From the IMG/VR virus record IMGVR_UViG_3300045988_140747: a stretch of 64,000 nucleotides of DNA; one strand, 5' to 3'. Position 1 is the first letter of the stretch; each line of letters starts with the position of its first letter. A program made the translations under genes and the position numbers. The stretch comes from a virus. Below are positions 24,289 to 37,980 of the stretch, in pieces. The notes under the pieces are model-generated. The model saw only the letters and a program-made list of their open reading frames with translations. It was not told where the DNA came from and made no database searches.

Positions 24289-25691
24289 ATGCCACAGATC
24301 CTGAAGCCGCAGGAAGGACCTCAGACACGGTTCATGTCTACCCCCGCGAGCATTTGTATCTATGGCGGCTAGGAGCAGCCGGCGGAGGGAAAAGCTTTGG
24401 ATTGCTCATGTCTGCCCTTCGGTACAAGAACGTGCCCGGGTTTGGCTGCACCATATTCCGAAAGAACTTCAACCAGATATTTGCACAGGGCGGTCTGTGG
24501 GATGAATCCATGCAGATCTACCAAGACGTCAAGGGAGCTTGTCCCAAGTTCGCTCGAGGGCAATGGTTGTTCTGCAATGACAAAGGTGAGGTTTTATCAA
24601 AGGTCACGTTTGCTCATATTGAGAAGGATGAGGACGTCCATAAATGGCAAGGCTCTCAGATCTGCGAATTGGGATTTGACGAGCTAACTCATTTTACCGA
24701 GAAAACGTTCTTCTATATGCTATCCCGTAACCGATCTGCCTGTGGTGTTGAGCCATTTGTCAGGGCTACATGCAACCCTGATGCGAATTCATGGGTGGCA
24801 AAGTTCATTGAGTGGTGGATCGATCAGGATACTGGATACCCAATCCCTGAACGGAGTGGGAAGATTCGATGGTTTATCCGCCGGGATGAAGTGCTCTACT
24901 GGGCTAATACCCGGCAAGAGCTCTGGAAAAGATTCAATCTCACTACAGAAGAGGAGAAAAGTGAGCCAAGGTCTGTCACGTTCATAATGTCTAAGTTGAG
25001 CGACAACAAGGAACTTATGAAGGTGAACCCGGGCTACCTTGCAAACCTAAAGGCGCTGTCTCAGATCGAGAGAGAGCGCCTTCTTTATGGAAACTGGAAG
25101 ATCAAGGCCGCTGCTGGTCTCTACTTCAAGAGATCACAGCTTGGAGAGATTCTCAATAGTGTCCCTGCGGATGTCATCCAGTGGGTAAGATGCTGGGACT
25201 TGGCTGCTACGGAAAAGGACGACAAGGGAGACCCGGCATATACTGCTGGCGTCCTTATGGGAAAGCGGAAGAATGGACGATATGTCATTGCCAACGTTGT
25301 CAACAAGCAGATGTCCGCATCTGATGTCCGAAAGACCATCAAGCTCACGGCACAGTCTGATAGAGCTGCCTATAAGCGAGTCCGAGTTCGATTGCCACAG
25401 GATCCCGGACAGGCCGGTAAGGAACAGGCGGAGTCCTACATAAAGTTCTTGGCCGGCTTTGATGTTACGACTGTGGCAGAAAGCGGAACCAAAGAGGCAA
25501 GAGCGGAGCCAATGGCTGCACAATGGCAGGCTGGAAACTTCGACATTGTATACGGCGAGTGGAATGAAGAGTACCTGCTTCAGCTTGAAAACTTCCCAGA
25601 TGGAAAGTTCAAGGATATGGTCGATGCTTCCGCAAATGCTTTTGCAGAGATCGAATCCAGATGCGCATTCAACCTCAGCAACCTGATTTGA
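24289..25691 (+). CDS. terL: terminase large subunit, reading frame interrupted near codon 27
   Basis: ATG 24289 (RBS GGAAGGGG) encodes MPQILKPQEGPQTRFMSTPASICIYGG, then TAG 24370. The -1 frame continues LGAAGGGKSFGLL (Walker A), FDELTHF and ATCNPD. The long frame has no ATG or RBS of its own. Confidence 0.75.
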
Positions 25692-25717
25692 TTACCATAC
25701 CGGAAGGAGATATAAGC

Positions 25718-27110
25718 GTGGATAAGATGACACAAGAGGATCGCATCAAGCACTATGCGCATCTGATTCAGCGTCAGACTGGCAAGGCTGTGCGACCGTA
25801 CCGTGCTGACGGATACGTCAACATGGTTAACCGGTATGGCACATCGAAAGATTCGTCCGAGCAGTACAACTTCGTACCGGATGCGCCGGTTGCTGACGAT
25901 GTGCTTGAAATGCACTATGAAAACAACGGCCTGTTTTCCAAAATCATCGATATGCCGGCAGAGGAAGCCATCAAGCACGGCTTTACCATCGAAGACGTAG
26001 AGGACGGAAAGCTGGCTGACTTCTACAGCGAAGCTCTCGACGAACTCAACTGGGAAGAGAACGCCATGACCGCCGTTAAGTGGGCAAGACTGTTCGGCGG
26101 CTCCATTGCCATTATGCTTGTGAACGATGGTCGTGGGCTCGAGGAACCTCTCGATTGGAAGAACATTCAATCCATTGACGATATCCGAGTGTACGACAGA
26201 TCGCTCATTAGCCCTGACTACAGTAGCGTGTTCAACTACGATCCGCAGGATCCATTCCGAGTTCGCGGCAGTCGGCTTGGTATGCCCGAATACTATGATG
26301 TCTATAGCAAGTATGGATCATTCCGAGTACACGACAGCAGATGCCTTGTTTTCCAAAACGGCGTCCTGCCTGAAAATGCAACTAACTCCATCTACCAGTT
26401 TTGGGGAATCCCGGAGTACATCAGGCTGAACAAGGCCATCCGGGATGCGGACATTGCACACCGCAGCGCACCCAAGTTGCTGGAACGGTCTGTGCAGCCC
26501 ATCTATAAGATGAAGGATCTCGCGGCTGAGTTGGCTACAGAACAGGGCGAAGACCGCATTCTCAAACGTCTGCAGGTTATCGACACTGCACGAGGAATCC
26601 TCAACAGCCTTGTCATCGATGCCGATGGCGAAGACTATGACTTCAAGACGTTCCAGTACAACGGTATCACTGACGTTATCAGTGCATCCTGCAATATGCT
26701 CGCTGCCCTGTCCAATATTCCACAGATCATTCTGTTTGGGCAGACCATCAGCGGAATGAGCAGCACTGATGACACCAGCATGGAGAACTACTACAACTAC
26801 GTTGAGCGCATTCAGAAAAGGATGCTGCGGAGTAATCTCCGATATCTACTGTCTGTTGTTTTTCAAGCCGGCCTTGCAACCGGAGAGGTTGATGAAGTCC
26901 CAAAGCTGAAGGTTCAGTTCAATCCTCTGTGGTCTGTCAGCGATTCCGACCAAGCAACTCTGGATCAGCAGAAGGCCCAGACCGAGCAGATCAAGGCGCA
27001 GACTGCCCAGATCTATGTCGGTATGGAAGCCATTGATCCCAGCGAGGTTCGTTCCAAGCTTGCAGATAGCGATGACTTTGATGTCGAGAATATGCTTGAT
27101 GAGTATACTG
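25718..27110 (+). other. portal domain (DUF1073-like)
   Basis: RADGYVNMVNRYGTSKDSSEQYNF...LEMHYENNGLFSKIIDMPAEEAIKHGF and the following ~400 aa fit the DUF1073 portal pattern. Position is directly after TerL. Confidence 0.75.
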
Positions 27111-30100
27111 AAGAGGAACTCGAAGCTGGAATGCCAAGCAATGATGAGAGCCAAGAGCAAACGCCTGATGATGGACAGCCTGCTACTCCTGATTCTCAAC
27201 CTACTGGAAATGATGAAAAAGCCGGACCTGGTCAGCTCCTGAACGAAAAGACTCTCTCTGCTGTTGGAAACAATGCAAAAGATCCTGCCACCATGGAGAC
27301 TAAGGTTAGCTCCGATCCTCATGAAAACAAGGAAGGCACTGAAGGTGATGCCCCTGCATCCGCCCCTGCTGCGACGAAAAAGCCTTCCGACATGGACCCT
27401 GAAGAAAAGGCCAAAGCTGCACAATCGCGCCAAAACAAGGCAAAAGACCGGGAGGACTCACTTCGTACCGATGACAACAATTCTCACTCCGAAGATCAAA
27501 AAGGCTCGGTGGGCGTTATTGTGGTCAATGGGGGCAGAGTCCTGAATGGTACTCGGCACAACGATTTTGGCTACGGCCTTGTCTGTGGCCCCGGCGGTCA
27601 CATTGAAGAAGGTGAAACTCCGGAACAGGCTGCATTCCGAGAGACCAAAGAAGAATTCGGTATTACGCCCAAAAGCCTTATGTGCCTTGGACAAGGGCCT
27701 AAAGAAAAAGATACCGGCCTGAAGCCGTACCTGTTCCTGTGCACCGAATACTACGGCACTCCGAACTGCGAAGATCTCGAGATGACCGGCGCCAAGTTCA
27801 GTACCATTGAGGAATTGAACGAAAAGGCCGAATCCTTGTTCGGCCCGTTCGCAGACGGCCTGAACATCCTGATGGACTGCCTTGAAACCGGCATCTTCTA
27901 TACAGACCCAGCGGAAGGCGTAACTGGCGAGAAACTGAATTCTCATCTGGAAAAGGCTATGAATGCCGATGGAGGTCAAGGATCTGGCAATTTTGGACAC
28001 GAAGGAAGGCCAGGAAAAGTAGGAGGAAGCGCCGAGTCGCACAACTTTGGAGGGCTCAAAAACAGCGAGCTTTCATCTAAGATGAATGGCGTGTTCGATG
28101 ATGCAAAGATAGGAACTCGCTTTTCCGTAAAGATGAACGGCGTTGCCGGAAAAGATGATTATGAAATCTATAAAGTTTCAGATGGATTCTACGTTCGGAG
28201 CAAAAAAGGCGGAAACGATATTGTCAAATCAGTTGACAAGCTCGTCGAGAATTGCGGTGTATACGTCACAAATCTGACCTCTGACAAGGTCATGTATAAG
28301 GAAGCCAACATTGAAGTTGGTGAACCCGAAACAGAAGAAGCACAAAGTTTTACTAGAGCATACGAATCTTGCAGAAAGGAAAGAGAGCGACTTGCATCTG
28401 GGAATTATAAAATCACTGAAGTTGATGATGCTACCGCAAAAAAGTATGCTGACACTTTGAACAAAGCAAGCAAGGCAAAAATCGCAAAACTTGCTATTGA
28501 TGACCCACAGTTCAAGGCTGTTGTTGATAACATTTCTGCGTATACACAGGGAGAATATGTATATCAGCGAAAAGCGACTGAAAAATTCATCAGCAACGGA
28601 TATGACCCATCTAACGATGCAATCCTCGGAGATCGACTTACCGATTCTTTGTATTTATGCAAAGACATGTACAAGGGACAAAATCTTTCCGTTTCCAGTG
28701 CAAGTGTAACGGAAGGCATGGCGAACTTGACAAAGGCTGTGAATTGCTCCGATCCGTTTGACGGAGAGCTGTACCGAGTTGCTCAGGACAGAAGCCTGAT
28801 GAAAACTGCAGACTCTGGAAACCAGGGAGTATACACTCCGCCAAAACCCGGAGAAACAATATCCATAGTTGCTCCTACTTCGTTCTCAAAGGACAAAGCG
28901 GCTATTGATAAGATTGCCAAAGATAAGTCCGGTGATATCATCTATTACACTGTTCAACCGGGTGCTCATGCCGTAGATGTATCAAAGCTGTCACCGTATA
29001 AGCAAGCTGAACTCCTTACCTGCGGAGAATATGAGGTTGTCAGTGTTGATTCCAAGCCTCAGAGAGTTGTTATGACTCAGATCGATCGTTTCACAAGTGA
29101 AACAATCGATTCGCTGAAGGCCAACAGAGGGGCAACAGTTGACGACGGTTTTGTTAAATTTCCAATCCTTGAAACTCATGTGACTCTTCGCCAGAAAGAA
29201 CCTATTCACATGGATTCTTGCGATGATAGCATCCACAGATACAGACCCGACGATTTTTCCGAACGGATGGTCTATGATGACGAGATTGATCTCGATGGTG
29301 GCCCAGGGTCTGGGAACTATGGGCACGAGGGCGTTCCGGGGCAAGTGGGCGGAAGCGCCCCTAGCACAAGCGGTCCGATTTCCAAAAGTAGCTTTCAGAA
29401 GGGCTCTGGTCACTTTGAAGTAACTGGTGACGTGAAAGATATGTATCTCACAAAGCCGGCAAGAACCAGAATTGAAGGGGCTATTAAAACGGTGAAAACC
29501 GCTAATGACCTCAAGAAATATCTTGAAAATCAAGGAATCAAGCTTGAAACGTCTTATGAACCACTCAAGAAAGCGATGGATAGAGAGATCCCGTCCATCA
29601 AGGAGCAGGCTGATTATGTGATTGCCGCTATTGAGCAGTACAAGGATCTCGGTGGGCTTAAAGCGCTTAAAGCGGTTCACATCTATGACCATGATATTGA
29701 TGCACAGGCGCAGTACAGCTATCGCGCAAAAGGGGAAGGTGATGTTCCAGACGAGGGACATTTGTATATCAGCTACATGGCTAATGGAGAGCAAATTATG
29801 CATGAGTTTGCTCACGCCTATGCTGACTCCACAAAGCCTGATGGAATGGATGTTGTCGAATGGTCAGCGAAGCTCAACCAAGAAGCAGGCCTTTCGAAAA
29901 ACGTAAAATCATACTTCGGCGCGGACAGCGATGCTAAAGAAGCTGAGCGTTTTGCCAATGCGATTGGGTACGCAATTGCGGATGGAGATGGACCGGATGG
30001 CCGACTTGCATTTGCTGCAAATGTTGCGAATATCGTAAGAAATTCCAATGGATCGTCCGCAGGAATGTCCGGCGGAAACCTTGCATTTAGAAGCATGATT

Positions 30101-31897
30101 CCGAAAGACAGCTACTTCAACTCTCCATCCTACAAGAAGGCTGTTGAAGCCTACCGCGGAGCCATCAGAAAGCATGACGATGCATGGAAGAAATATAGCG
30201 ACCTCAAGGAAGATCTCAAAGCAGAGTCCGCTCCGAAGCCTGAATCTGAATGGGATGATAACGACATCTTCGAAGATCTCATTGGCCATCGTCCCATGAC
30301 CTACACAGAAAAAGGCAAGAAGATCAAGTCTGAGATGGACAAAGCCTTCAAGGATTCACAGGAATATGACCATGAGCAGACCGAGACTGGCGACAAGCTT
30401 CGCGAGATCAAGAAAAAAGAGCATGACAAGCAGGTGAAGGGCATCCATTTCCAACCGCCTGCTGATGCCTCCTCCGATGATTATGAGGGCTTTACCACTA
30501 AGACCACCGGAACGTCCGCCTATGATGACTACATCAACGGAGAAAGGAACGGAGGCCGAATTGCAGAGATGTCCCCGGCGGAATATCTTCAAAGATGCGC
30601 CTATCAGGTCTTTGAAGATGCTACCATTGAGTCCACTCTGGCTGCTATCGATGAGTCCAACGTTAAGAAGTATGCCGATATGATGAAGAATGGCACAAAG
30701 TTTGACATGCCGTATCTCAATTTCATGTCTGGTCAGCAGGAAGGACGGCATCGAGCCGCTGCTGCCATGCAAGCTGGTATCGATAAGATCCCTGTGCTTG
30801 TGGTCGGAGAAAGGTTTGCCAAGTATGACGGAGGAAAAGGCTCTGGCAACTGGGGCCATGAAGGCCGAAAAGGGAAGCTCGGTGGATCGGCCCCCGGCGG
30901 AGGCGTGCACAACCGGATTTCCGAAGAGGGCGGATCCTACACCTCATTCTCAAAGAAGCAGAAGAAACTTGCCACAACGCACTTTGCCGGCAAGGGGGAA
31001 TTTCACAATCTCCCGGACAAGACTAAGATTGTTGCCGATCTTGTGTTTGGACCGTACTCTATGGTCTATAACGCCAAGCATGGCATGTTCATCGGCGAAG
31101 ACGGTGCCGAAATGAACCCGGATGATGTGACAGACGCTTGCGACAAAGACACTCCTGTTCGAGTGTTCATTCCGAATGAGGCGAGCACGAACTACAACAA
31201 GCTCAAGCAGTCCTTTGATGTTTCCCCGTCCAGAATGGCTGAAGCAAAAGCCTATTCACAGCCAAAGCAAGCCGACAAAGACCTCCGAAAGAAAACCGGA
31301 GAGGTGTGGAAAACGCTTACTGATGGTCAGAAAAAGTCACTTTATGATTATACCGGCGGCTTTTTTATGGACATCAACCACTCCCTGAGAAGTGGTCATG
31401 GAACTGTGCAGAACCAGTCCAAGGCCTCTGACATCACGACCGCCATAGCTAAGAGCAAAACTCAAGAGGATATGTGGCTGTATCGAGGAGTTGGCTTGGA
31501 GGCTGTTCCTAAGATGTTTGGTATTGACTGGGGAAAAATACAGAAGAATGACATTGGTTCTATTGTTGGAATGTCCGGCTCTGACGACGGCTTTATGTCG
31601 TGCGGTACAACTGCTGGCACTGGATATGGAGACGTAACCGATGTCAACATGAAGATTTTCGTTCCGAAGGGGTCTGAGGCTCTATACGCAGAGCCGTTCT
31701 CAAAGTATGGAAGCAACCCGGATGCCAAGAACTGGAACGGCGAAAGCGATCAGACCTATTTTTCCTCCGAAATGGAGACTATCTTGCAAAGAGGGTCTCA
31801 TTTCCAATGCACAAAAGCCTACTACGATGAGGACAAAAAGAAATACAGTATCGAAGTGGCTGTCACCGGACAAGAATACAAGGAGCTCAATTGGTGA
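25718..31897 (+). CDS. portal protein fused to a ~1,500-aa multi-domain (polyvalent) effector extension
   Basis: GTG 25718, 8 nt after GGAAGGAG (or ATG 25727). One uninterrupted frame of about 2,060 codons. N-terminal DUF1073-type portal, then NUDIX, ART-like, HExxH, ParB-like and ART domains separated by a repeated Gly-rich motif. Confidence 0.85.
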   Translation: MDKMTQEDRIKHYAHLIQRQTGKAVRPYRADGYVNMVNRYGTSKDSSEQYNFVPDAPVADDVLEMHYENNGLFSKIIDMPAEEAIKHGFTIEDVEDGKLADFYSEALDELNWEENAMTAVKWARLFGGSIAIMLVNDGRGLEEPLDWKNIQSIDDIRVYDRSLISPDYSSVFNYDPQDPFRVRGSRLGMPEYYDVYSKYGSFRVHDSRCLVFQNGVLPENATNSIYQFWGIPEYIRLNKAIRDADIAHRSAPKLLERSVQPIYKMKDLAAELATEQGEDRILKRLQVIDTARGILNSLVIDADGEDYDFKTFQYNGITDVISASCNMLAALSNIPQIILFGQTISGMSSTDDTSMENYYNYVERIQKRMLRSNLRYLLSVVFQAGLATGEVDEVPKLKVQFNPLWSVSDSDQATLDQQKAQTEQIKAQTAQIYVGMEAIDPSEVRSKLADSDDFDVENMLDEYTEEELEAGMPSNDESQEQTPDDGQPATPDSQPTGNDEKAGPGQLLNEKTLSAVGNNAKDPATMETKVSSDPHENKEGTEGDAPASAPAATKKPSDMDPEEKAKAAQSRQNKAKDREDSLRTDDNNSHSEDQKGSVGVIVVNGGRVLNGTRHNDFGYGLVCGPGGHIEEGETPEQAAFRETKEEFGITPKSLMCLGQGPKEKDTGLKPYLFLCTEYYGTPNCEDLEMTGAKFSTIEELNEKAESLFGPFADGLNILMDCLETGIFYTDPAEGVTGEKLNSHLEKAMNADGGQGSGNFGHEGRPGKVGGSAESHNFGGLKNSELSSKMNGVFDDAKIGTRFSVKMNGVAGKDDYEIYKVSDGFYVRSKKGGNDIVKSVDKLVENCGVYVTNLTSDKVMYKEANIEVGEPETEEAQSFTRAYESCRKERERLASGNYKITEVDDATAKKYADTLNKASKAKIAKLAIDDPQFKAVVDNISAYTQGEYVYQRKATEKFISNGYDPSNDAILGDRLTDSLYLCKDMYKGQNLSVSSASVTEGMANLTKAVNCSDPFDGELYRVAQDRSLMKTADSGNQGVYTPPKPGETISIVAPTSFSKDKAAIDKIAKDKSGDIIYYTVQPGAHAVDVSKLSPYKQAELLTCGEYEVVSVDSKPQRVVMTQIDRFTSETIDSLKANRGATVDDGFVKFPILETHVTLRQKEPIHMDSCDDSIHRYRPDDFSERMVYDDEIDLDGGPGSGNYGHEGVPGQVGGSAPSTSGPISKSSFQKGSGHFEVTGDVKDMYLTKPARTRIEGAIKTVKTANDLKKYLENQGIKLETSYEPLKKAMDREIPSIKEQADYVIAAIEQYKDLGGLKALKAVHIYDHDIDAQAQYSYRAKGEGDVPDEGHLYISYMANGEQIMHEFAHAYADSTKPDGMDVVEWSAKLNQEAGLSKNVKSYFGADSDAKEAERFANAIGYAIADGDGPDGRLAFAANVANIVRNSNGSSAGMSGGNLAFRSMIPKDSYFNSPSYKKAVEAYRGAIRKHDDAWKKYSDLKEDLKAESAPKPESEWDDNDIFEDLIGHRPMTYTEKGKKIKSEMDKAFKDSQEYDHEQTETGDKLREIKKKEHDKQVKGIHFQPPADASSDDYEGFTTKTTGTSAYDDYINGERNGGRIAEMSPAEYLQRCAYQVFEDATIESTLAAIDESNVKKYADMMKNGTKFDMPYLNFMSGQQEGRHRAAAAMQAGIDKIPVLVVGERFAKYDGGKGSGNWGHEGRKGKLGGSAPGGGVHNRISEEGGSYTSFSKKQKKLATTHFAGKGEFHNLPDKTKIVADLVFGPYSMVYNAKHGMFIGEDGAEMNPDDVTDACDKDTPVRVFIPNEASTNYNKLKQSFDVSPSRMAEAKAYSQPKQADKDLRKKTGEVWKTLTDGQKKSLYDYTGGFFMDINHSLRSGHGTVQNQSKASDITTAIAKSKTQEDMWLYRGVGLEAVPKMFGIDWGKIQKNDIGSIVGMSGSDDGFMSCGTTAGTGYGDVTDVNMKIFVPKGSEALYAEPFSKYGSNPDAKNWNGESDQTYFSSEMETILQRGSHFQCTKAYYDEDKKKYSIEVAVTGQEYKELNW
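27503..27900 (+). other. NUDIX hydrolase domain
   Basis: Nudix box GPGGHIEEGETPEQAAFRETKEEFGI (GX5EX7REUXEEXGU). Confidence 0.8.
27968..28033 (+). repeat. protein-level linker motif copy 1: DGGQGSGNFGHEGRPGKVGGSA
   Basis: Read directly from the translation. Codons differ from the other copies. Confidence 0.9.
28520..29120 (+). other. possible ADP-ribosyltransferase-like domain (R-S-QxE)
   Basis: YTQGEYVYQRK..., ELYRV (Arg, nt 28775), PTSFS (nt 28877), KQAELL (QxE, nt 29003), spaced about 35 and 42 aa apart as in C3-like ARTs. Motif-level only. Confidence 0.35.
29294..29359 (+). repeat. linker motif copy 2: DGGPGSGNYGHEGVPGQVGGSA
   Basis: Read directly from the translation. Confidence 0.9.
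29400..30060 (+). other. HExxH (zincin-like) domain
   Basis: IMHEFAHAY at nt 29798-29821 within a helical region. No third ligand assigned. Confidence 0.4.
30550..30812 (+). other. ParB/Srx-like domain
   Basis: MSPAEYL...YADMMKNGTKFDMPYLNFMSGQQEGRHRAAAAMQAGIDKIPVLVV (GRHR plus IPV pattern). Confidence 0.6.
30827..30892 (+). repeat. linker motif copy 3: DGGKGSGNWGHEGRKGKLGGSA
   Basis: Read directly from the translation. Confidence 0.9.
31300..31894 (+). other. C-terminal ADP-ribosyltransferase domain (R-S-ExE type)
   Basis: LYDYTGGFFMDINHSLR, WLYRG (Arg, nt 31484), GFMSCGT (STS-like), SEMETILQRG (ExE, nt 31769-31777). Confidence 0.75.
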
Positions 31898-31929
31898 TTC
31901 TTGCAATATTCTGAAATGTTTGTTGTTAT

Positions 31930-31973
31930 TTGACAAAACAGAATGTATCTGTTACGATACGTTTGTAAAAAAC
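31930..31973 (+). promoter_or_regulatory. promoter P3: TTGACA-17 nt-TGtTACGAT plus downstream acGTTTGTAAAAAAc
   Basis: Third copy of the conserved motif. About 20 nt upstream of the RBS of 31996. Confidence 0.6.
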
Positions 31974-31995
31974 ATCATGTTCTAGGAGGGATAAA

Positions 31996-32223
31996 ATGGC
32001 GAAATGGGACAATGAAGAACTGTCGTGGGTACGGCCTGACAAGAATAAAATCCAATGTTCAAAGTGCATGCTGCGAGAGAAGGACCGACTGGACGGAGAA
32101 ATCGACGGGGCCACACTTGGTGTGTGTGAAGCCTTCCAATTTAAGCCGACGGAGATTCTTTTCAACGGCGCTGAGTGTCCGTATTTCATTGACGAGAACA
32201 CGCCAGACGACGAAGAAGAGTGA
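31996..32223 (+). CDS. small Cys-containing acidic protein
   Basis: 75 aa, RBS TAGGAGGG. CSKC...C...C. Acidic tail DDEEE. Confidence 0.6.
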   Translation: MAKWDNEELSWVRPDKNKIQCSKCMLREKDRLDGEIDGATLGVCEAFQFKPTEILFNGAECPYFIDENTPDDEEE

Positions 32224-32238
32224 CTTGAAAGGGAACAG

Positions 32239-33057
32239 GTGGCAGGATTGAAGAACACCAATCGAATCATCGGAGGAATCGTTGGCGATATCGTCGGATC
32301 TGTATATGAGTTCGACAATATCAAGTCCAAGGACTTCGTTCTGTTTGGGGATCATCACGGTCAGAAATGCTTCGCAACCGATGACAGCATAATGACTCTG
32401 GCGGTTTGCGATGCGTTCACCAAGAGTGCTCCGTACTACGAATTCCTTTACGAAAACCTCATGAAGTCCATGCAGGAAATCGGAAGACCGTATCCGGATT
32501 GCGGATACGGAGGAAGATTTTATAGCTGGATGTACTCTGATAACCCACAGCCGTATAACAGCTTTGGGAATGGCGCTGCGATGCGCGTAAGTGCTGCAGC
32601 ATACGCTGCGAATACGCTCTCTGAAGCTCTCGACTTCGCAAGAATCACTGCAGAAGTCACCCATAATCACCCTGAAGGCATCAAGGGCGCACAGGCTACT
32701 GCTGGATGCATTTACCTTGCGCTTCATGGATATGACTTCCGAAAGATCCTGCGATTTGCCGATCACTACTATGACCTAGACTTCACCCTTCACGGTATCC
32801 GTGACAGCTATCGGTTCAATGAGTCCTGCCAGGAAACAGTTCCACAGGCTATTGTCGCTTTCCTTGAATCCACTGATTTTGAGGATTCAATCCGCAACGC
32901 GATTTCCATTGGCGGGGACAGCGACACACTGGCCTGTATTACTGGATCTATTGCCGGAGCCTACTATGGTGTTCCCGTAAACATCGCAGATAAGGCCATC
33001 GGATATTTGGATCCTCGCCTCCGTGAAATCTACGATCGGTTTGTTGAAGAGTTCTGA
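32239..33057 (+). CDS. ADP-ribosylglycohydrolase (ARH/DraG family)
   Basis: GDIVGSVYEF, ATDDSIMT, NSFGNGAAMR, THNHPEGIKGA and IGGDSDTLACITGSIAGAYYG are the ARH metal-binding motifs. GTG start. Confidence 0.85.
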   Translation: MAGLKNTNRIIGGIVGDIVGSVYEFDNIKSKDFVLFGDHHGQKCFATDDSIMTLAVCDAFTKSAPYYEFLYENLMKSMQEIGRPYPDCGYGGRFYSWMYSDNPQPYNSFGNGAAMRVSAAAYAANTLSEALDFARITAEVTHNHPEGIKGAQATAGCIYLALHGYDFRKILRFADHYYDLDFTLHGIRDSYRFNESCQETVPQAIVAFLESTDFEDSIRNAISIGGDSDTLACITGSIAGAYYGVPVNIADKAIGYLDPRLREIYDRFVEEF

Positions 33058-33084
33058 TCTGCTACAATTCCATAAGCACCTGTG

Positions 33085-33118
33085 AGCAGGGCCATCTTTT
33101 TGATGGTCCTGCTTTTTT
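33085..33118 (+). terminator. rho-independent terminator abutting tRNA-Thr
   Basis: AGCAGGGCCATC-ttttt-GATGGTCCTGCT (12 bp, one G-T), then TTTTTT. Confidence 0.8.
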
Positions 33119-33194
33119 GCTAGTGTAGCTCAACCGGAAGAGCAGACGTCTTGTAATCGTCAGGTTGCGGGTTCAAGTCCCGCCGTTAGCTCCA
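33119..33194 (+). tRNA. tRNA-Thr (anticodon TGT)
   Basis: Acceptor GCTAGTG/CGTTAGC (two wobbles), D arm GCTC/GAGC, anticodon loop CTTGTAA, T arm GCGGG-TTCAAGT-CCCGC, CCA encoded. Confidence 0.8.
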
Positions 33195-33448
33195 ATAGCC
33201 GTACACCGTAATCGGCACGTCGAATGGCACATGGATCATCGCAACGTTTTTGTTTGCGCGTTACGGTTTCCAACAGAAGCTGGCAATGGGAGCAAGTTTG
33301 TCCATAACGCCTCCGCCCATTGTCTGTCGGATGCGCTGTAAGCAATCAGCTGTGTGCCATAAAGCTCTGTACTCGTAAAAAGGTGCAGGGCTTCTTTTAT
33401 GAACACTTCACCAAATCTAAATAAAAGGCCGGGAAAGGGGACATCTCT

Positions 33449-34384
33449 GTGAACAATAAAATTCACCAAGAAGCTGTCAAACAGGCCACACAGGCCAAAT
33501 TCCGCGGCAAAAAGACCATCAAGTGCAAAACCAAACCATTATACCCGGAATCTGCCGAACGAGAGTATGCCCGAGTTACAAACGGCTACATGAAAATCCT
33601 CGACGATACTGTCAAGAAGCACATGCCAGCTATCATGAAAGCATACAAGGCAGATCTCGATGCAAGCATCCGAGAAGATGACATCCATGATGTTTTCGAC
33701 AAAACCCGCCGGGAATTCCAAAGAATGGCTGAAGAGCTTGAACGGAAACTTGCAAAGTATGGGCTGCAGAACCTCGTTGGCAAAGTCGCTCGCGTCGCAA
33801 GAAAGAGCTCATATAGGCAGTGGAAACGGGCCTGCAAGCAAACTCTCGGCATCGACCTTATGGACGATTACTACAACGGAGACTTCTATCGGCAAGCTGT
33901 TCAGAAATGGGTTGACGACAATGTCTTGAAGATTAAGAGCCTTCCGAATGACTCTCTCGGGTCAATGCAGCAGATTGTCTATAAGGGTTTTCAAAGTGGT
34001 GCAAGCGTCAGAGACATCTCGAAGGAGATTCAGGACGAGTACCAAACATCCAAGCATCAGGCACAAATGCTTGCTAGGGATCAGCTGTCCACCCTGAATT
34101 CTCAAATCACCCGACTTCAGCAAGAGGATGCCGGCTGTAAGCGATATAGGTGGTCAACGTCCAAAGACTCCCGAGTCCGGGACTGCCACAAGTCCTTCGA
34201 AGGAAAAGTGTTCAGCTGGGACGACCCACCTGAAGGATGGTATAAGACCAAGAACGGAATCAAGTACACTGGACGAAGATGCCACCCCGGGGAGGACTAC
34301 ATGTGTAGATGCGTAGCGATCCCCGTTTTCGACTGGGAAACCATAGACGTCCCTATGCAGACTGATGGTGAAAAGGAGAGCTGA
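33449..34384 (+). CDS. MuF/SPP1 gp7-like minor head (head morphogenesis) protein
   Basis: Central helical region, then C-terminal RYRWSTSKDSRVRDCHKSFEGKVFSWDDPP...RCHPGEDYMCRCVAIPV, typical of the Phage_Mu_F domain. GTG start after GGGAAAGGGGA. Confidence 0.8.
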   Translation: MNNKIHQEAVKQATQAKFRGKKTIKCKTKPLYPESAEREYARVTNGYMKILDDTVKKHMPAIMKAYKADLDASIREDDIHDVFDKTRREFQRMAEELERKLAKYGLQNLVGKVARVARKSSYRQWKRACKQTLGIDLMDDYYNGDFYRQAVQKWVDDNVLKIKSLPNDSLGSMQQIVYKGFQSGASVRDISKEIQDEYQTSKHQAQMLARDQLSTLNSQITRLQQEDAGCKRYRWSTSKDSRVRDCHKSFEGKVFSWDDPPEGWYKTKNGIKYTGRRCHPGEDYMCRCVAIPVFDWETIDVPMQTDGEKES

Positions 34385-34389
34385 TTTCA

Positions 34390-34578
34390 ATGGAAACCAA
34401 AGAAAAGATCGAAGTTTTCATTGACATTGAGAACGGGAACACGGTCTGCATCTGCAAACGCACTCGAAAAGGATGCAAAAAGTTCTGCGAAGCAGCTGTT
34501 GTTGAGAGGGATAAGTACCTCGGCTGGGAAAAGACGTTCCGACAGAACCGATACGGAAAATGCGATGGAATAGACTGA
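34390..34578 (+). CDS. small Cys-containing protein
   Basis: 62 aa, RBS AAAAGGAGAG. Confidence 0.5.
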   Translation: METKEKIEVFIDIENGNTVCICKRTRKGCKKFCEAAVVERDKYLGWEKTFRQNRYGKCDGID

Positions 34579-34666
34579 AGGGGTGGCAGACTTGAGGTCG
34601 AGATCGCGATCACTGGTCAGAATACCAAGAAGCTCAACTGGTAGATCATAGAAAGGAACTTTTTAC

Positions 34667-35566
34667 ATGAAAAACACAATACAAGATATTCGAGAGAGAC
34701 AGATGCTTCGAAGGAAAGCGATGGACAGCCGAAAGCTTGTTATTTTTCGAAAAGACGGTTTGCCGGTTGTTGTTAGCGAGGATGGAGGCCCGGGGTCCGG
34801 TAATTTCGGACATGGAGGGCGTCCTGGAAAGGTTGGCGGTTCATCTGGCGGAGAAGGCTCTAAAAGCGCATCTGCTCCCAGCAGTAAAGCACCAAAAGCC
34901 AAGACTTACAACAATGAGATATCAAAAGCGTATAAGTCGAAGAACTACGCAGATGTTGGCAAAGCAATTAGAAAATGCGTTACGGATGCACCTATCGGCT
35001 CGAAATTCACCTCAAACGGAAACTCCTACACCAAAACAGGAGACGATACATTCGAGTATACAATCGCTTCGTTTCCGAATAAAAAGTTTCCTGCCAATAC
35101 GAACATGGTTGTAAATAACGCCGACTTGTTCAAATCCGAAAACGCTCTGAAGTTTGAAGAAAGTGAAGAAAAAGCATCGAAAGCCAGTGAAGAACAGGCA
35201 TCCGCTCCGCAGAAAAAAACTTCAGATAAAGAAACTTCGTCCCGAAAGCCGACCTTTAGCGGAAGCAAAAAGACCGAAGGAATTCGTTCTTTTGGTGGCA
35301 TCAAGTGGAACGAAAGAAATGAAATTCTCGAGAAAGCCCCAGTTGGAGCTAAAATCGAAGGAATTGTCAGCAATTCCGGGCGCCCGGTTGTCATTGAAAA
35401 GACGAGCGGTATTGTTTCCAAAACGTCTTATTTCGGAGACATCTTCAAAGAGAAGGAGGATTACTGGGAAGTCAACGGAGAAAGGGCTAACGGAAGCTCG
35501 CAGATTGCTGAGATTATTGGTCAGACTCTGAAGGGCACGAGCAAGTACTACAAGCTGAAGGAATAA
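34667..35566 (+). CDS. hypothetical virion-cargo-like protein carrying the GSGN linker motif near its N-terminus
   Basis: 299 aa. Residues 39-62 are DGGPGSGNFGHGGRPGKVGGSS. The rest is Lys/Ser-rich and unrecognised. Confidence 0.65.
   Translation: MKNTIQDIRERQMLRRKAMDSRKLVIFRKDGLPVVVSEDGGPGSGNFGHGGRPGKVGGSSGGEGSKSASAPSSKAPKAKTYNNEISKAYKSKNYADVGKAIRKCVTDAPIGSKFTSNGNSYTKTGDDTFEYTIASFPNKKFPANTNMVVNNADLFKSENALKFEESEEKASKASEEQASAPQKKTSDKETSSRKPTFSGSKKTEGIRSFGGIKWNERNEILEKAPVGAKIEGIVSNSGRPVVIEKTSGIVSKTSYFGDIFKEKEDYWEVNGERANGSSQIAEIIGQTLKGTSKYYKLKE
34781..34853 (+). repeat. linker motif copy 4: DGGPGSGNFGHGGRPGKVGGSS
   Basis: Read directly from the translation of 34667-35566. Confidence 0.9.
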
Positions 35567-35602: not shown

Positions 35603-35896
35603 GTGTTGTTTATGCAAAATTCTGCGGCTGTAGGTAGTATCTGCGCACAACTTATCAAGTCGTGCGAGAAGGTTCAAACGATCACATCGGCTATGGATGC
35701 TTTTGAGCAGACTAACGAGAAGCTCGTTGAATCTTATGGGAACATTCGGTTTGACGAACTCGAGCACATCCAGATTCTCACGCTGATGCTCACGGAGCTT
35801 GTCTCCGTTGAGAACGAGGAGAACATGGATGGAGAGGGGAGCGTATTTGCCCCCGGAGATCTCAACGACGTAAAGAAATGTGAGGGCGAGGAATGA
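35603..35896 (+). CDS. hypothetical protein
   Basis: 97 aa. Precedes the scaffold gene with an ATGA overlap. Confidence 0.5.
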   Translation: MLFMQNSAAVGSICAQLIKSCEKVQTITSAMDAFEQTNEKLVESYGNIRFDELEHIQILTLMLTELVSVENEENMDGEGSVFAPGDLNDVKKCEGEE

Positions 35897-37452
35897 CAAG
35901 AAATACCGAAAATGCACCGCCCAAGCTTTCTAGGGTCTACCGGCTCGATAGCTCTCCTGTGAATTCCACCTATTTCACTGAGGAAGGTTATCTGATCGAC
36001 CACCCGATTCTGACAAGCATCGGAATCTTCGAATACACGAACCCTGACGGAACCACTCGCAGGGAACTGCGAATTCCTGAAGAGGTTTTTAAGCCTGAAA
36101 GCCTCAAGTCCTATAAGGGTAAGCCTATCATCGTGACTCATGATGCCGGGCTTATCACCAAGGATAACGTTGGCGAAGAGGCAATCGGAACAATCCTGTC
36201 TGAAGGATACCAGGACAAGGATGACGTCCGAGCCGAAATCATCATCCATGATACGGATGAGATGAAATCTGTTGGGTTGAAGGAGCTGTCGCTCGGCTAT
36301 AACCTCACGCTCGATGAAACGCCGGGCGTGTGGGAAGGCAAGCCGTATGACGCTATTCAGCGAGATATTACCATCAATCACCTTGCGCTGGTTCTTCAAG
36401 CGAGAGCTGGCGACCAAGCACGGCTTAACATCGATAGCCGTGACCGCACTACGAAAGGAGTAAAAACCACCATGAGCAAGAAGATCAAAAAGTTCGGCTC
36501 TCGCGCCGACGGTGTTCTGAGCCCCGAAGAGCTGCAGAAGGCAATCGCCGACTACAAGAAGCGCCGCGCAGAGCGCATCGAGGGTCAGAAGGATGCAGAT
36601 GACGTTGCTCCTGCAGAAGCAGAGAACAAAAAGCCTGCTGCTGTCGAGACCGACGGAGATGAGACTGCTCCAACTGGCGCTGACGACCAGAAGAACGCAG
36701 TTCAGGCTGTCAAGGACCGCCGCGATCGTCGCGATGAGGAAGGCGACCCGAAAGATAAGGATGCCGCAATGGGCGTTATTGCCCAGCAGGATAGCGACAT
36801 GGATATCCTGTTTGACATCATCGACACCCTGCTGGCCGAGCGCGACATGAAGACTTCCGCCACCGATGGAGAGGAATGCGATCCCGAGGATCCCAACACC
36901 GACGCCGATGACGAGGAGAACAAGCCCGCATCTGCACTGGCTGCGGTCAACGGCGATGAGGACGAGGACGAGGATGAGGATCTCAACTCCGACGAGGATG
37001 ATGAAGAGGAAGTCAATGCCGATGAGGACGACGATGAGGTGCCTTCCACGAACGAGGGAGATGTCGGCAGCGCTGTCGTCAAGGAACCCACTTCCAATAT
37101 GGACTCTATCGATGCCATCGTTCGCCAGCGCGTCCAGCTCGGCATCGCAGGATCCAAGCTCGGCATCAAGGGCCTTGAGAACATGAAGCTGTCAAAGGCC
37201 AAGAAGACCGTCATTCGCGCAGTCAACCCCGGCATTCGTCTGGATGGCAAGAGCGATGCCTACATCAACGGCGCGTTCAGCTGCGCAATGGCTGCAATCA
37301 ATGCTCCTGCAAAGAAGGGCATTGCCTATCAGAAGAAGCAGATGTTCAACGGCGATTCCCGCGACTTTGCTTCTCGCACCACCAAGATGACTTCTGCTGA
37401 TGCAGCACGCGCTCGCATGATCGAGCGCCGTATGAACAAGGAGGTAAAGTAA
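35893..37452 (+). CDS. DUF2213-like head scaffolding / maturation protein
   Basis: N-domain YFTEEGYLIDHPILTSIGIFEY...ELRIPEEVF...KGKPIIVTHD...LSLGY...INHLALV (DUF2213 pattern), then a long acidic low-complexity region (DEDEDEDED...). Confidence 0.65.
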   Translation: MTRNTENAPPKLSRVYRLDSSPVNSTYFTEEGYLIDHPILTSIGIFEYTNPDGTTRRELRIPEEVFKPESLKSYKGKPIIVTHDAGLITKDNVGEEAIGTILSEGYQDKDDVRAEIIIHDTDEMKSVGLKELSLGYNLTLDETPGVWEGKPYDAIQRDITINHLALVLQARAGDQARLNIDSRDRTTKGVKTTMSKKIKKFGSRADGVLSPEELQKAIADYKKRRAERIEGQKDADDVAPAEAENKKPAAVETDGDETAPTGADDQKNAVQAVKDRRDRRDEEGDPKDKDAAMGVIAQQDSDMDILFDIIDTLLAERDMKTSATDGEECDPEDPNTDADDEENKPASALAAVNGDEDEDEDEDLNSDEDDEEEVNADEDDDEVPSTNEGDVGSAVVKEPTSNMDSIDAIVRQRVQLGIAGSKLGIKGLENMKLSKAKKTVIRAVNPGIRLDGKSDAYINGAFSCAMAAINAPAKKGIAYQKKQMFNGDSRDFASRTTKMTSADAARARMIERRMNKEVK

Positions 37453-37453
37453 C

Positions 37454-37960
37454 ATGAGCGCACAGATCAATTACGGATTTTCTACCCCGATCGGCTCTGC
37501 TGGCGGCATTGTCGATCTGGCTCCCTATGCCATTGACAGCTTCCTGAACGATGAGGATAACGGCAAGCTGAAGTTCGGCATCGGCGTTGTCCGCGGAGAG
37601 AAGCCCGGCGTTGGCATTAAGCTGCCTGCCACCGATTCCACCGCTGCCAAGTTTGAAGGCATCACCACAAACAACCGTACCACTGAGTACAATATGGACG
37701 GTGACCTGTCCATCCGTAAGGGCGCATCCGTTGGTGTCATGCGTTATGGTCGCATCTATGCTCGCGTTGCAGATGGTGTGACGGTCAAGTATGGTGATGC
37801 ACTGTATCTGCTGACCGATGGCGAAAATGCCGGCATGTTTACCAACGCTGCATCTGCTACCACTCCCAAAGCTGTGGCTGTCAAGGGACGCTTCCTTGGC
37901 GCAGCTGATCTCAGCACCAAGGTCGCCGCCGTCGAGCTGTTCGATCAGGCACAGGCTTAA
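37454..37960 (+). CDS. capsid cement/decoration protein (Gp24/DUF2190-like)
   Basis: 168 aa, lying between the DUF2213-like and major capsid genes as in related head modules. Gly-rich beta-type sequence. Confidence 0.5.
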   Translation: MSAQINYGFSTPIGSAGGIVDLAPYAIDSFLNDEDNGKLKFGIGVVRGEKPGVGIKLPATDSTAAKFEGITTNNRTTEYNMDGDLSIRKGASVGVMRYGRIYARVADGVTVKYGDALYLLTDGENAGMFTNAASATTPKAVAVKGRFLGAADLSTKVAAVELFDQAQA

Positions 37961-37980
37961 ACAGAAAGGAGAAAATCACA

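Follow-up and report, generated by a model that had tools for sequence, protein, structure and literature searches.

The window, by which we mean the whole stretch of DNA that was analysed (64,000 nucleotides of the IMG/VR virus record IMGVR_UViG_3300045988_140747), carries a giant ORF of 2078 aa (25661..31897; like all features described here, on the plus strand) that encodes a portal-fused polyvalent effector protein with matches to PF06381, PF00293 and PF03496. It begins with a portal domain (aa ~28-500; 25742..27160; portal family phrog_15528 at aa 28-500, E 7e-182; PF06381 at aa 84-442), which is followed by a low-complexity linker of ~100 aa and a NUDIX hydrolase domain (aa 615-720; 27503..27820; PF00293, E 6e-14). 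Portal and NUDIX together form the constant part of the protein in ten related loci. Behind this part the order is motif, small domain plus ART fold, motif, HExxH plus ParB-N-like domains, motif, and ART, the motif being a Gly-rich peptide of 22 aa that is treated below. Sub-module A1 (aa ~792-921; 28034..28423), delimited by homologue boundaries, is predicted to be a small alpha/beta domain with additional helices (AF2 pLDDT ~90), and sub-module A2 (aa ~922-1211; 28424..29293) a second domain of the ADP-ribosyltransferase fold, whose AF2 model matched Vis, Certhrax, C3 and VIP2 in Foldseek (E 1e-7, probability 1.00). Sub-module B1 (aa ~1240-1461; 29378..30043; pLDDT ~90) is a zincin-like domain with HEFAH at aa 1381, for which Foldseek returned weak matches to M1/IrrE zincins below significance. 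Long helices and a C-terminal ParB-N-like region (QEGRHRAAAA) characterize sub-module B2 (aa ~1475-1722; 30083..30826; pLDDT ~90); its ParB-N match in Foldseek was below significance, and the assignment is supported by ParB_N Pfam matches in related multi-motif proteins. The protein ends with an ART toxin module and its linker (30893..31894; PF03496 at aa 1878-2067, E 1e-20; phrog_16625, Bxa ART), and among homologues this variable part is an ART, Ntox50, a glutamine deamidase or a zeta toxin.

Two candidate immunity genes follow. A small ORF of 102 aa (31943..32251), which had no match in family-model searches, is conserved beside ART and ARH genes in three related loci and is a candidate non-enzymatic immunity protein for the ART, by analogy with Bsi of the Bxa system (PMC11699363). 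The next gene encodes an ADP-ribosylglycohydrolase (32239..33057; PF03747, E 6e-38; phrog_6572), a candidate enzymatic immunity protein comparable to BAH of the same system (PMC11699363). Further downstream lie a MuF-like minor head protein (33449..34384; PF04233, E 1e-21; phrog_324), which is motif-free here, an ORF of 299 aa taken from the ORF list (34667..35566), which bears the fourth motif copy and has its own SD-like GAAAGGAA 9 nt upstream of the ATG, and a DUF2213 head-maturation protease/scaffold-like protein (35893..37452; PF09979 at aa 28-178, E 5e-30; phrog_530). The 299-aa ORF has seven full-length homologues, all its other matches covering the motif only. A profile scan of the window found the DUF2213 protein and the MCP motif-free.

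The number of distinct effector or enzymatic domains in the giant ORF falls within the range by which polyvalent proteins are recognized (2 to 15 per polypeptide). Such proteins lie among the late or virion genes, frequently in fusion with a head protein (MuF or portal), and the giant ORF shares this context: a portal at the N-terminus, TerL upstream, and MuF, DUF2213, a cement protein and the MCP downstream. It also has the layout of MuF-type polymorphic toxins, with a constant head protein at the N-terminus, a variable C-terminal toxin and adjacent immunity candidates, the constant carrier in the window being the portal and not MuF.

Conservation, distribution and polarity of the motif

An earlier note on this DNA had recorded four 22-aa copies of the motif, and translation recovered all of them: copy 1 (27968-28033; DGGQGSGNFGHEGRPGKVGGSA; aa 770-791 of the giant ORF; profile score 45.0 bits), copy 2 (29294-29359; DGGPGSGNYGHEGVPGQVGGSA; aa 1212-1233; 45.6 bits), copy 3 (30827-30892; DGGKGSGNWGHEGRKGKLGGSA; aa 1723-1744; 34.2 bits) and copy 4 (34781-34846; DGGPGSGNFGHGGRPGKVGGSS; 40.6 bits). 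The last had been placed correctly near the N-terminus of the 299-aa ORF, where it occupies residues 39-60, with its end set 7 nt too far (34853 instead of 34846). A six-frame regex search found exactly these four copies in the window; a degenerate DNA pattern likewise gave four matches, as against 0.00 expected from 100 dinucleotide-preserving shuffles, and with a profile built from 664 foreign copies the four score 34-46 bits, the next-best match in the window reaching 6 bits. As had been proposed, codon choice differs in every copy: pairwise nucleotide identity is 61-73%, the same codon is used at only 3-6 of 16-19 identical residues, and the longest exact run common to the copies is 9 nt. 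These divergent codons uphold the suggestion that selection acts on the peptide and not on the DNA. The possibility of a neutral, low-complexity flexible linker or of a recombination hotspot at the nucleotide level, to which a glycine-rich motif at cassette boundaries might point, can practically be dismissed, since it is already contradicted by the divergent codons together with the non-Gly residues that are invariant across the 664 copies, and a simple linker would not persist at the N-terminus of single-domain proteins.

The 664 copies, which were found by profile and not by pattern, give a consensus of ~20 residues, [KD]GGxGSG[NH][FWYH]GHxGRPGxxGGS, followed by a G/S-rich linker. S5, H10, R13, P14 and S20 are conserved at 87-99%, the Asn position holds N in 71%, H in 18%, F/Y in 7% and D in 2% of copies, and G-R-P-G is present in 542 copies (82%), R being replaced by V, I or L in ~7%, a type of replacement also seen in copy 2 of the window. 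GRPG is preceded by A, S, E or K and followed by E, Q, K and then V, with Glu the commonest residue (45%) two positions after it. Gly recurs at every third residue over five triplets (GNF-GHx-GRP-GxV-GGS), and the logo is weak at positions -10 to 0.

At E<=1e-3 a profile search detected the motif in 4064 or more protein clusters, from phages and prophages of many bacterial phyla and from a small number of archaeal MAGs; single proteins carry as many as 10 copies. Its sequence is conserved among phages whose portal, MCP and protease families differ, and among loci of 8 kb or longer roughly half contain just one copy. Models of Pfam, NCBIfam and PHROG gave no match to the motif, either in the window's proteins or in proteins with 4-9 copies, a profile search of the PDB gave 0 matches at E<=10, and no searchable paper covers it; the motif seems undescribed so far. 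The scan of phage proteins for domains lying behind the motif, which the earlier note had recommended, yielded many different ones: ART, NUDIX, Ntox50, glutamine deamidase, zeta toxin, GNAT, ParB-N, zincin and even MuF. Nearly always the motif sits in head-gene modules, and in the window's group as well as in unrelated loci the genes follow the order TerL, portal, motif modules, MuF, protease, MCP, always on one strand.

Its placement is strictly polar. At least 100 aa follow the last motif in 132 of 134 viral ORFs, and the first motif lies at most 80 aa from the first Met in 95 of 143; the same polarity holds in 150 representative proteins, where motifs are usually spaced 150-300 aa apart. 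The motif is essentially never C-terminal, a domain of at least ~100 aa stands behind it, and what precedes it is a short leader or else a carrier domain (portal, MuF, DUF2213 prohead protease). In each of 100 portal fusions every motif lies on the C-terminal side of the portal domain; 60 of these fusions have a single copy. Leader plus motif open the MuF proteins of seven loci. Random placement in homologues, the outcome that would have spoken against a role at domain boundaries, was thus not found: the motif keeps to module boundaries. Because it is never C-terminal, and because its variants go with the domain behind it more than with the one in front, its sequence pattern identifies it as a header of the downstream module and not a symmetrical separator. 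The claim that copies separate the enzymatic segments of the giant ORF stands for all three of them, with the qualification that the portal-NUDIX, A1-A2 and B1-B2 junctions are motif-free, as is the linker behind the portal when its sequence is read. In three relatives the motif directly precedes A2. At the B1-B2 junction (30041..30085; pLDDT <50 at model residues 265-273) the linker GSSAGMSGGNLAFRSMIPKDSYF, which is normally found after a motif, is kept; three relatives have B1 and then a motif, and three others a motif and then B2. By this homologue comparison the motif is precisely lost between B1 and B2 in the giant ORF, and because of this loss we consider it dispensable at some junctions.

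A module that is fused behind a motif in one phage may be a free-standing gene of leader, motif and domain in a relative. The ART and B modules, fused here, are such separate genes in five other loci, where the ART module in particular is a gene of leader, motif and ART. From these arrangements, motif and downstream domain are judged to travel between phages as a cassette.

A cargo tag and processing site as the preferred reading

In two independent AF2 models the flanking domains are predicted confidently (pLDDT ~90) and motifs 1, 2 and 3 fall below 50, motif 2 in both models. The motif is thus modelled as a disordered peptide, and since the three copies of the giant ORF are disordered between confident domains, we infer that it acts as a short linear motif and is recognized in trans. 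Most likely it marks each module for loading and/or proteolytic release. In the reading that we prefer, at a probability of roughly 45%, it heads cargo modules both as a cargo tag and as a processing site of head-internal proteins, with a postulated cleavage. The head-assembly and maturation machinery would read the motif in trans; as a tag it would keep or place the downstream module inside the procapsid, into which the carriers (portal C-terminus, MuF or DUF2213 protease) are built, and as a cutting site of polyproteins it would detach the effectors (ART toxins, zincin, ParB-like and others), both from one another and from the portal. Effectors so freed could then leave with the DNA. Polyvalent proteins are present in virions, and head-packaged ARTs such as T4 Alt are cleaved and injected (PMC5512222, PMC9503650, bioRxiv 10.64898/2026.04.10.717836); phi24B gp47, which has been detected in virions, offers an analogy for packaging of the giant ORF. 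The cargo-signal part of the earlier note is consistent with this reading, as the many different downstream domains and the head-assembly context fit a portable tag for head-packaged cargo.

The most likely cutting enzyme in the window would be the DUF2213 Ser/His protease next door. H83, S133 and H163 are invariant in 46-47 homologues, in the H-S-H order of assemblin-type proteases, and in seven other loci the motif stands 5-15 aa behind the DUF2213 catalytic domain; among the 35 loci that extend 5 kb or more downstream, only 19 have a DUF2213 gene. The protein is a plausible but unproven candidate for the trans-acting reader or protease partner. Several observations argue against the preferred reading, among them the incomplete presence of DUF2213 genes and the motif-free DUF2213 protein and MCP of the window. 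A near-invariant site of 20 residues is far longer than the known sites of prohead proteases (LxE in T4, AxE in phiKZ), its conservation across different portal, MCP and protease families and many host phyla is odd for a co-evolving pair of enzyme and substrate, and free-standing proteins with leaders of 8 aa would gain little from cleavage alone. Moreover, the motif can be lost at a junction while the modules remain, and MuF-ART toxins such as the Bxa-like protein of Bacteroides phage Versailles function without it.

A tag that only docks, binding a conserved feature of the procapsid interior (inner face of the MCP, scaffold, portal crown or MuF) and never being cleaved, much as the loading peptides of encapsulins tether their cargo through a flexible linker, would account for a disordered motif with a G/S-rich linker behind it, for its retention in free-standing genes with very short leaders, and for the many unrelated cargo domains in a head-module context. 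We regard it as a doubtful alternative, as the 60 portal fusions with a single copy are anchored already; there a docking tag is superfluous and a release site is not, so that these proteins count for release. Docking also gives no reason for the absence of the motif from C-termini, an invariant ligand is hard to square with diverse MCP and portal families, and portal-fused toxins with immunity genes would remain in the virion and never reach their target. In a second, equally tentative proposal the peptide is a self-sufficient, lineage-independent address label for the heads of tailed phages, ~20 residues in front of any domain being enough for procapsid loading, release from the carrier and expulsion through the tail with the DNA; the motif might then act as a thin Gly-rich threading leader that bears a binding epitope, in the manner of colicins with their unstructured translocation domains. 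If it is such a label, its partner would be something that very different phages share, or the motif itself, and not a co-evolving enzyme.

Cleavage as in the preferred reading could also be ascribed to the zincin-like metallopeptidase modules of the polyvalent proteins themselves instead of the prohead protease, either in the head or after injection, as has been proposed for the processing of polyvalent proteins in general (Iyer et al. 2017, PMC5512222). An HExxH site is present in 57 of the 150 multi-motif proteins (~0.06 expected per protein), typically ~100-120 aa behind a motif, and module B1 of the window has such a site. We nevertheless think this unlikely: HExxH is missing from 62% of the multi-motif proteins, loci of the window's group such as L008 (only portal, NUDIX and a module of A1 plus A2) have no B1, and P0067 and P0058, with four or five tandem units of motif and HExxH module, resemble cargo and not a dedicated enzyme. 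Somewhat more improbable still is self-association, in which the motifs of several chains (e.g., of the 12 portal subunits) would bundle as polyglycine-II or collagen-like segments and organize or co-recruit cargo without a partner. This would explain an extreme conservation independent of head-gene lineage, and it suits the strict G-X-Y periodicity and the frequency of multi-copy proteins and loci; five triplets are, however, few for a helix to be stable, collagen repeats do not typically conserve S, H, R and P in this specific way, about half of the larger loci have one copy only, and AF2 left the two motifs of each model unpaired and unstructured (a weak test, these being monomer models).

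We give little credence to autoproteolysis inside the motif, by cyclisation of Asn (as in NPTH of FlhB/EscU) or by an N-to-O acyl shift at G-S, although N-x-G-H is similar to N-P-T-H, G-S is invariant, and a chemistry independent of any partner would account for conservation across lineages. The Asn is only 71% conserved, unlike that of FlhB/EscU or the C-terminal Asn of inteins, which makes Asn cyclisation an unlikely form of the autocleavage suggested in the earlier note, and predicted disorder leaves no strained fold for an acyl shift. A DNA tether, with the frequent GRPG core as an AT-hook and up to 10 copies providing multivalency for modules riding out on packaged DNA, is highly improbable: AT-hooks have an R-G-R-P core and basic flanks, whereas the flanks here are non-basic with Glu common behind GRPG, the R is replaceable, and conservation is just as high in the N-terminal half of the motif, which has no likeness to any AT-hook. 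Internal proteins, moreover, enter procapsids ahead of the DNA.

Head-packaged effectors (ARTs, nucleases, anti-restriction proteins, and MuF toxins, e.g., Bxa and Apk2) are for many phages the first strike at host defences and physiology. To our knowledge, their recruitment to the capsid and release from carriers are known for only a few model phages (T4, P1). If the preferred reading is true, this easily recognized motif would make it possible to search metagenomes for injected effectors by sequence, anything behind it being candidate cargo, and the old question of how polyvalent proteins are processed would become directly testable through mutation of one motif; if portable, it could be a tag for loading chosen proteins into phage particles. 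A header function would also explain modular evolution, in which one ART or zincin/ParB cassette with its header is either portal-fused or a gene of its own.

Comparison with known systems

Herpesvirus assemblin R/M sites and the autoprocessing of phage protease-scaffold proteins resemble the seven loci in which the motif stands directly after a prohead-protease domain of the Ser/His(/His) type, with a C-terminal region behind it. It is at this place that enzymes of the assemblin type release themselves. The small residue plus Ser (G-S) of the motif recalls A|S, but most DUF2213 proteins, including that of the window, are motif-free, and the scissile bond is a guess. Encapsulin cargo-loading peptides, too, are short, Gly-rich and disordered, with a flexible linker, and bring arbitrary cargo into an HK97-fold shell; they are usually C-terminal, have a different consensus (GSLxIGSLKG-like) and demonstrated shell binding, whereas our motif is strictly N-terminal to cargo.

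The pre-toxin motifs of polymorphic toxins (VENN of CdiA, DPxGL of Rhs; Zhang et al. 2012, PMC3482391) similarly stand between a constant trafficking part and variable toxin cassettes; here portal and NUDIX are constant and cassettes with downstream immunity genes are swapped among relatives. They differ in sequence and delivery machine, the Gly-rich motif precedes every module and also heads free-standing genes, and DNA-level homology between its copies is too low for simple homologous cassette exchange. With polyvalent proteins (Iyer et al. 2017, PMC5512222) the giant ORF shares the combination of NUDIX, two ARTs, zincin-like and ParB-like domains in one polypeptide, its location among late head genes and its fusion to a virion protein. 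To these the motif adds a defined, repeated boundary element, seemingly tied to phage heads; the text of PMC5512222 makes no mention of glycine or linkers.

In the T4 system of capsid-targeting sequence (CTS) and gp21 (IPI-III, Alt), cargo that is packaged in the head, an ADP-ribosyltransferase among it, likewise has a short peptide at its N-terminus. This cargo enters the procapsid, is trimmed by the prohead protease and is injected together with the DNA. The CTS is an amphipathic leader of ~10 aa that ends in LxE (or I-x-E) and is cut by a gp21-family protease. It is unrelated in sequence to the 20-aa Gly-rich motif; upstream of the motif LxE is absent and the logo is weak, and the protease of the window is DUF2213. 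The likeness is functional only. The T4 signal is also lineage-specific, whereas the Gly-rich motif spans many phage lineages and is internal and repeated in polyproteins, where cleavage is presumed. In function, CTS-directed loading with gp21 cleavage of internal proteins and Alt would be the closest working analogy to the tag and processing site proposed here.

Conservation and distribution of the motif

Translation of the window bore out all four copies of the motif (GGxGSGN[FWY]GHxGRPGxxGGS) claimed in the earlier note: three lie in the giant ORF (25661-31897, + strand, 2078 aa) at residues 770-791, 1212-1233 and 1723-1744, and the fourth at residues 39-60 of ORF299 (34667-35566, + strand), where it ends at nt 34846 and not, as previously given, at 34853. 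A six-frame regular-expression search returned exactly these four matches, a degenerate DNA pattern matched 4 times against 0.00 expected from shuffles, and a profile derived from 664 copies outside the window gave the window copies 34-46 bits, the next best match in the window reaching 6 bits. Window copies share 16-19 identical residues, only 3-6 of which use the same codon, and their longest common nucleotide run is 9 nt. The match statistics, profile scores and codon divergence together show that selection acts on the peptide, as had been proposed; the codon divergence also rules out a DNA-level recombination signal. A plain linker is excluded by the conservation over 664 copies.

The motif is very widespread. 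A DNA-pattern scan of IMG/VR located it in at least 118 stretches, the matches listed including loci with as many as 9 copies. Because a word-indexed homologue search with the motif profile gave only 6 short proteins, 1.84 billion representative proteins were searched exhaustively with the profile; the motif was recovered in at least 4064 clusters at E<=1e-3 (697 at E<=1e-10), with up to 10 copies per protein. The consensus of the 664 profile-detected copies (figures in per cent) reads [KLR/D]GGxGSG[N71 H18][F73 H11 W Y]G H99 x G R90 P87 G x [V/I/R] G G S98 and is followed by an A/S/G-P-G/S-rich stretch. In reference genomes the motif sits in prophage head regions, mostly of Clostridia, further hosts being Acidobacteriota, Chloroflexota, Omnitrophota, Elusimicrobiota, several Proteobacteria, Eggerthellaceae and Melainabacteria, and head genes of the window's lineages were found in 37 of 50 such loci. 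Motif-bearing prophages occur in Clostridiales bacterium CCNA10 (AP018533.1, locus L132) and Oxalobacter paraformigenes HOxBLS (NZ_KI392031.1, locus L161). Exact matches also occur in two archaeal MAG contigs (L133, Methanothrix; L151, Methanomassiliicoccales), which could represent archaeal tailed viruses with the same tag, or mis-binning. None of the Pfam, NCBIfam and PHROG models or PDB sequences covers the motif, its strings occur in 0 papers searched in full text, and it is absent from the papers on polyvalent proteins, polymorphic toxins, Bxa, phi24B and NAD-ADPr systems. A tblastn search with the motif alone found nothing, probably owing to the low-complexity filter, and searches with the ART (ADP-ribosyltransferase) module and with the motif protein P0012 matched domains only; no cultured phage with proteomics was found that could be linked to the motif. 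The motif appears to be undescribed; the class of proteins carrying it is already known.

Modular organisation of the giant ORF and its relatives

The giant ORF begins with a portal domain (PF06381, phrog_15528), followed by a motif-free, acidic, Pro- and Lys-rich low-complexity linker of ~100 aa (27160-27500; aa ~500-610) and a NUDIX domain; portal and NUDIX form the constant part in all relatives, and if cleavage took place at the motifs only, NUDIX would be left on the portal. Motif 1 precedes a small domain, A1, and then a second ADP-ribosyltransferase-fold domain (28424-29293; aa ~922-1211), recognised from an AlphaFold model and Foldseek: Pfam did not detect it, yet the model matches the C3/VIP2/Vis/Certhrax ADP-ribosyltransferases (E 1e-7, probability 1.0) and the sequence shows an R...APTSFS...KQAELL pattern. 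Behind motif 2 lie B1, with an HExxH (HEFAH at aa 1381), and the helical B2, which ends in a ParB-N-like segment; the confident model of B1+B2 found nothing significant in the PDB with Foldseek, nor did a profile of the region match PDB sequences. Motif 3 is followed by a PF03496 ART, so that together with the domain behind motif 1 the giant ORF holds two ARTs, as against only one ADP-ribosylglycohydrolase (ARH) gene downstream. Immediately upstream, the terminase large subunit (TerL) ORF (24354-25691) overlaps the start of the giant ORF at 25661 by 31 nt; its listed TTG start may not be the true N-terminus, because its PHROG match begins at profile position 173 of 642. Given this domain make-up, with TerL upstream and head genes downstream, the giant ORF is a portal-fused polyvalent protein or polymorphic toxin sensu Iyer et al. 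2017 and Zhang et al. 2012. No GenBank phage matched the giant ORF by megablast.

AlphaFold was run twice with family alignments, on aa 1200-1760 and on aa 755-1245; all four sub-domains reached pLDDT ~90, and the three motifs stayed below 50 and made no motif-motif contact. Strong conservation in a segment predicted to be disordered is the hallmark of a short linear motif, which would be bound or processed in trans.

Among relatives of the window phage, portal and NUDIX are fixed and everything behind the first motif varies: module A in locus L008, the ART in L038, longer arrays in L011 and L082, and in other homologues Ntox50, glutamine deamidase or zeta toxin. The window's ART and B modules recur as free-standing genes with a basic leader of 25-45 aa followed by the motif (L089, L071, L100, L032, L057). 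In L100 (3786-8960, - strand) and L089, two to four paralogous leader-motif-ART genes (four in L100) stand in tandem beside MuF; here the ART cargo is amplified, not fused. Two library proteins, P0067 and P0058, consist of four or five successive units of motif and HExxH domain, each HExxH ~110 aa past its own motif, and so form arrays of zincin modules.

Not every junction carries a motif. At the B1-B2 junction of the window (30041-30085; giant ORF aa ~1461-1475; ...ANIVRNSN/GSSAGMSGGNLAFRSMIPKDSYF..., the slash marking the junction) the end of B1 abuts the G/S linker that normally stands behind a motif (reference homologues P0190, P0177, P0157, P0198, P0204), and in homologues a motif separates B1 from the module behind it and another stands ahead of B2. 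The window has lost the motif precisely at this junction, a natural 'motif deletion' variant. The A1-A2 junction also lacks a motif that P0221, P0225 and P0228 possess; individual junctions can therefore do without the motif.

The position of the motif identifies it as the header of the module behind it, not as a separator. Among viral ORFs, 132 of 134 had at least 100 aa behind the last motif, in 95 of 143 no more than 80 aa lay between the first Met and the first motif, and motifs were never closer than 128 aa. The 150 best representatives are laid out as a short leader and repeated motif-linker-domain units, usually spaced 150-300 aa, and any large domain ahead of the first motif is a head protein. 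In portal fusions every motif is C-terminal to the portal domain (100 of 100; 60 with a single copy), in seven of the 11 loci with MuF and motif in one ORF leader and motif start the protein, and in seven loci the motif stands 5-15 residues past the conserved DUF2213 domain, ahead of a variable C-terminal region. Agreement at variable motif positions was 0.67 between copies with the same downstream domain, 0.56 with the same upstream domain and 0.46 for random pairs, the pairs not being phylogenetically independent.

The surrounding head genes

Along a single strand the genes always come as TerL, portal, motif modules, MuF, protease and MCP, and in 73 unrelated loci the neighbours are mainly portal, terminase, MuF and capsid families of several PHROGs. 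In the window, a 102-aa ORF (31943-32251) directly after the ART overlaps the start of the ARH gene (32239-33057), an arrangement identical to that of Bsi and BAH, the immunity pair of the phage toxin Bxa (PMC11699363); L038, L071 and L089 keep the two genes. MuF, a 62-aa Cys-rich ORF (34390-34578; METKEKIEVF...CICKRTRKGCKKFCEA...) with a strong AAGGAG ribosome-binding site and no family match, ORF299, the DUF2213 protein, a cement protein and the PF09950 MCP follow. ORF299 has seven full-length homologues, too few for useful structure prediction. The DUF2213 protein (PF09979; 35893-37452) is annotated as head maturation protease in PHROGs and its Pfam family is still uncharacterised; H83, S133 and H163 are invariant among 46-47 homologues and follow the order of the assemblin triad. 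With its extremely acidic low-complexity stretch of ~170 aa (aa ~230-400) ahead of a conserved C-terminal domain, it looks in sequence like a protease-scaffold fusion. Neither this protein nor the MCP of the window contains a motif copy. The cement protein (PF22758, E217 gp24/Pam3 gp6 type) and MCP (37454-39024) assign the window to the head type of E217 and Pam3.

Possible function and known systems

That the motif is a module-boundary tag in head-packaged cargo, as proposed earlier, has good support; the remainder of that proposal, cleavage or docking at the motif, we infer. We put at roughly 0.45 the probability that the motif is a combined loading-and-processing signal: the head machinery would read it as a tag, and the cargo behind it would be loaded into the head and then cut free of its carrier, the DUF2213 protein being the most likely candidate enzyme in the window phage. 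The C-terminus of the portal faces the capsid interior, and the 60 single-copy portal fusions are thus already anchored in the head. Portal-fused toxins with immunity genes would reach a new host only if cut off, which favours release, as do the motifs directly behind a prohead-protease domain, where assemblin-type enzymes release themselves, and the assemblin-like residue order in the neighbouring DUF2213 protein. A role as a tag beyond cleavage is favoured because the near-invariant motif is kept on single-domain proteins, with leaders down to 8 residues, and is never C-terminal. Docking only, which these arguments for release disfavour, is unlikely. Processing by the zincin modules is more doubtful still, even with HExxH present in 38% of multi-motif proteins. 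From GSG onward each third motif residue is Gly; PGII or collagen-like self-association has a slim probability. Autoproteolysis is highly improbable, and the Asn-cyclisation form of the autocleavage previously entertained is contradicted by the conservation pattern, H, F, Y or D replacing N in 29% of copies. DNA tethering is likewise highly improbable, its AT-hook-like form being rejected on the non-basic flanks, with Glu common beside GRPG, and opposed by V, I or L at R13 in ~7% of copies.

No exclusive link between the motif and DUF2213 emerged: of 35 loci with sufficient downstream sequence, 19 have the gene, and MCPs and proteases of other families occur as well. Obligatory pairing of motifs on different proteins is weakened: among loci 8 kb or longer, about half have one copy only. 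Some observations sit badly with the favoured reading. Twenty near-invariant residues are much more than a protease requires, conservation is equal across phages whose portal, capsid and protease families differ and whose hosts are very diverse, and the DUF2213 protein and MCP of the window are motif-free. Either these heads have in common some structurally conserved feature that acts as the reader, or the peptide has an intrinsic property that escapes the tools applied. This misfit is what chiefly keeps the finding interesting.

Nudix and ART domains fused to portal, MuF and capsid-processing peptidase are known from earlier literature, and the Bxa-like MuF-ART of the Bacteroides phage Versailles differs in having no motif. 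We rate the motif as belonging with the targeting and processing signals of head-internal proteins, and the T4 capsid-targeting sequence with its gp21 cleavage is an analogue of the proposed function. The Stx phage phi24B, judged by its cementing protein and uncleaved MCP, probably shares the head type of the window; its MCP is reported as uncleaved, and a 2811-aa polyvalent protein is present in its virions.
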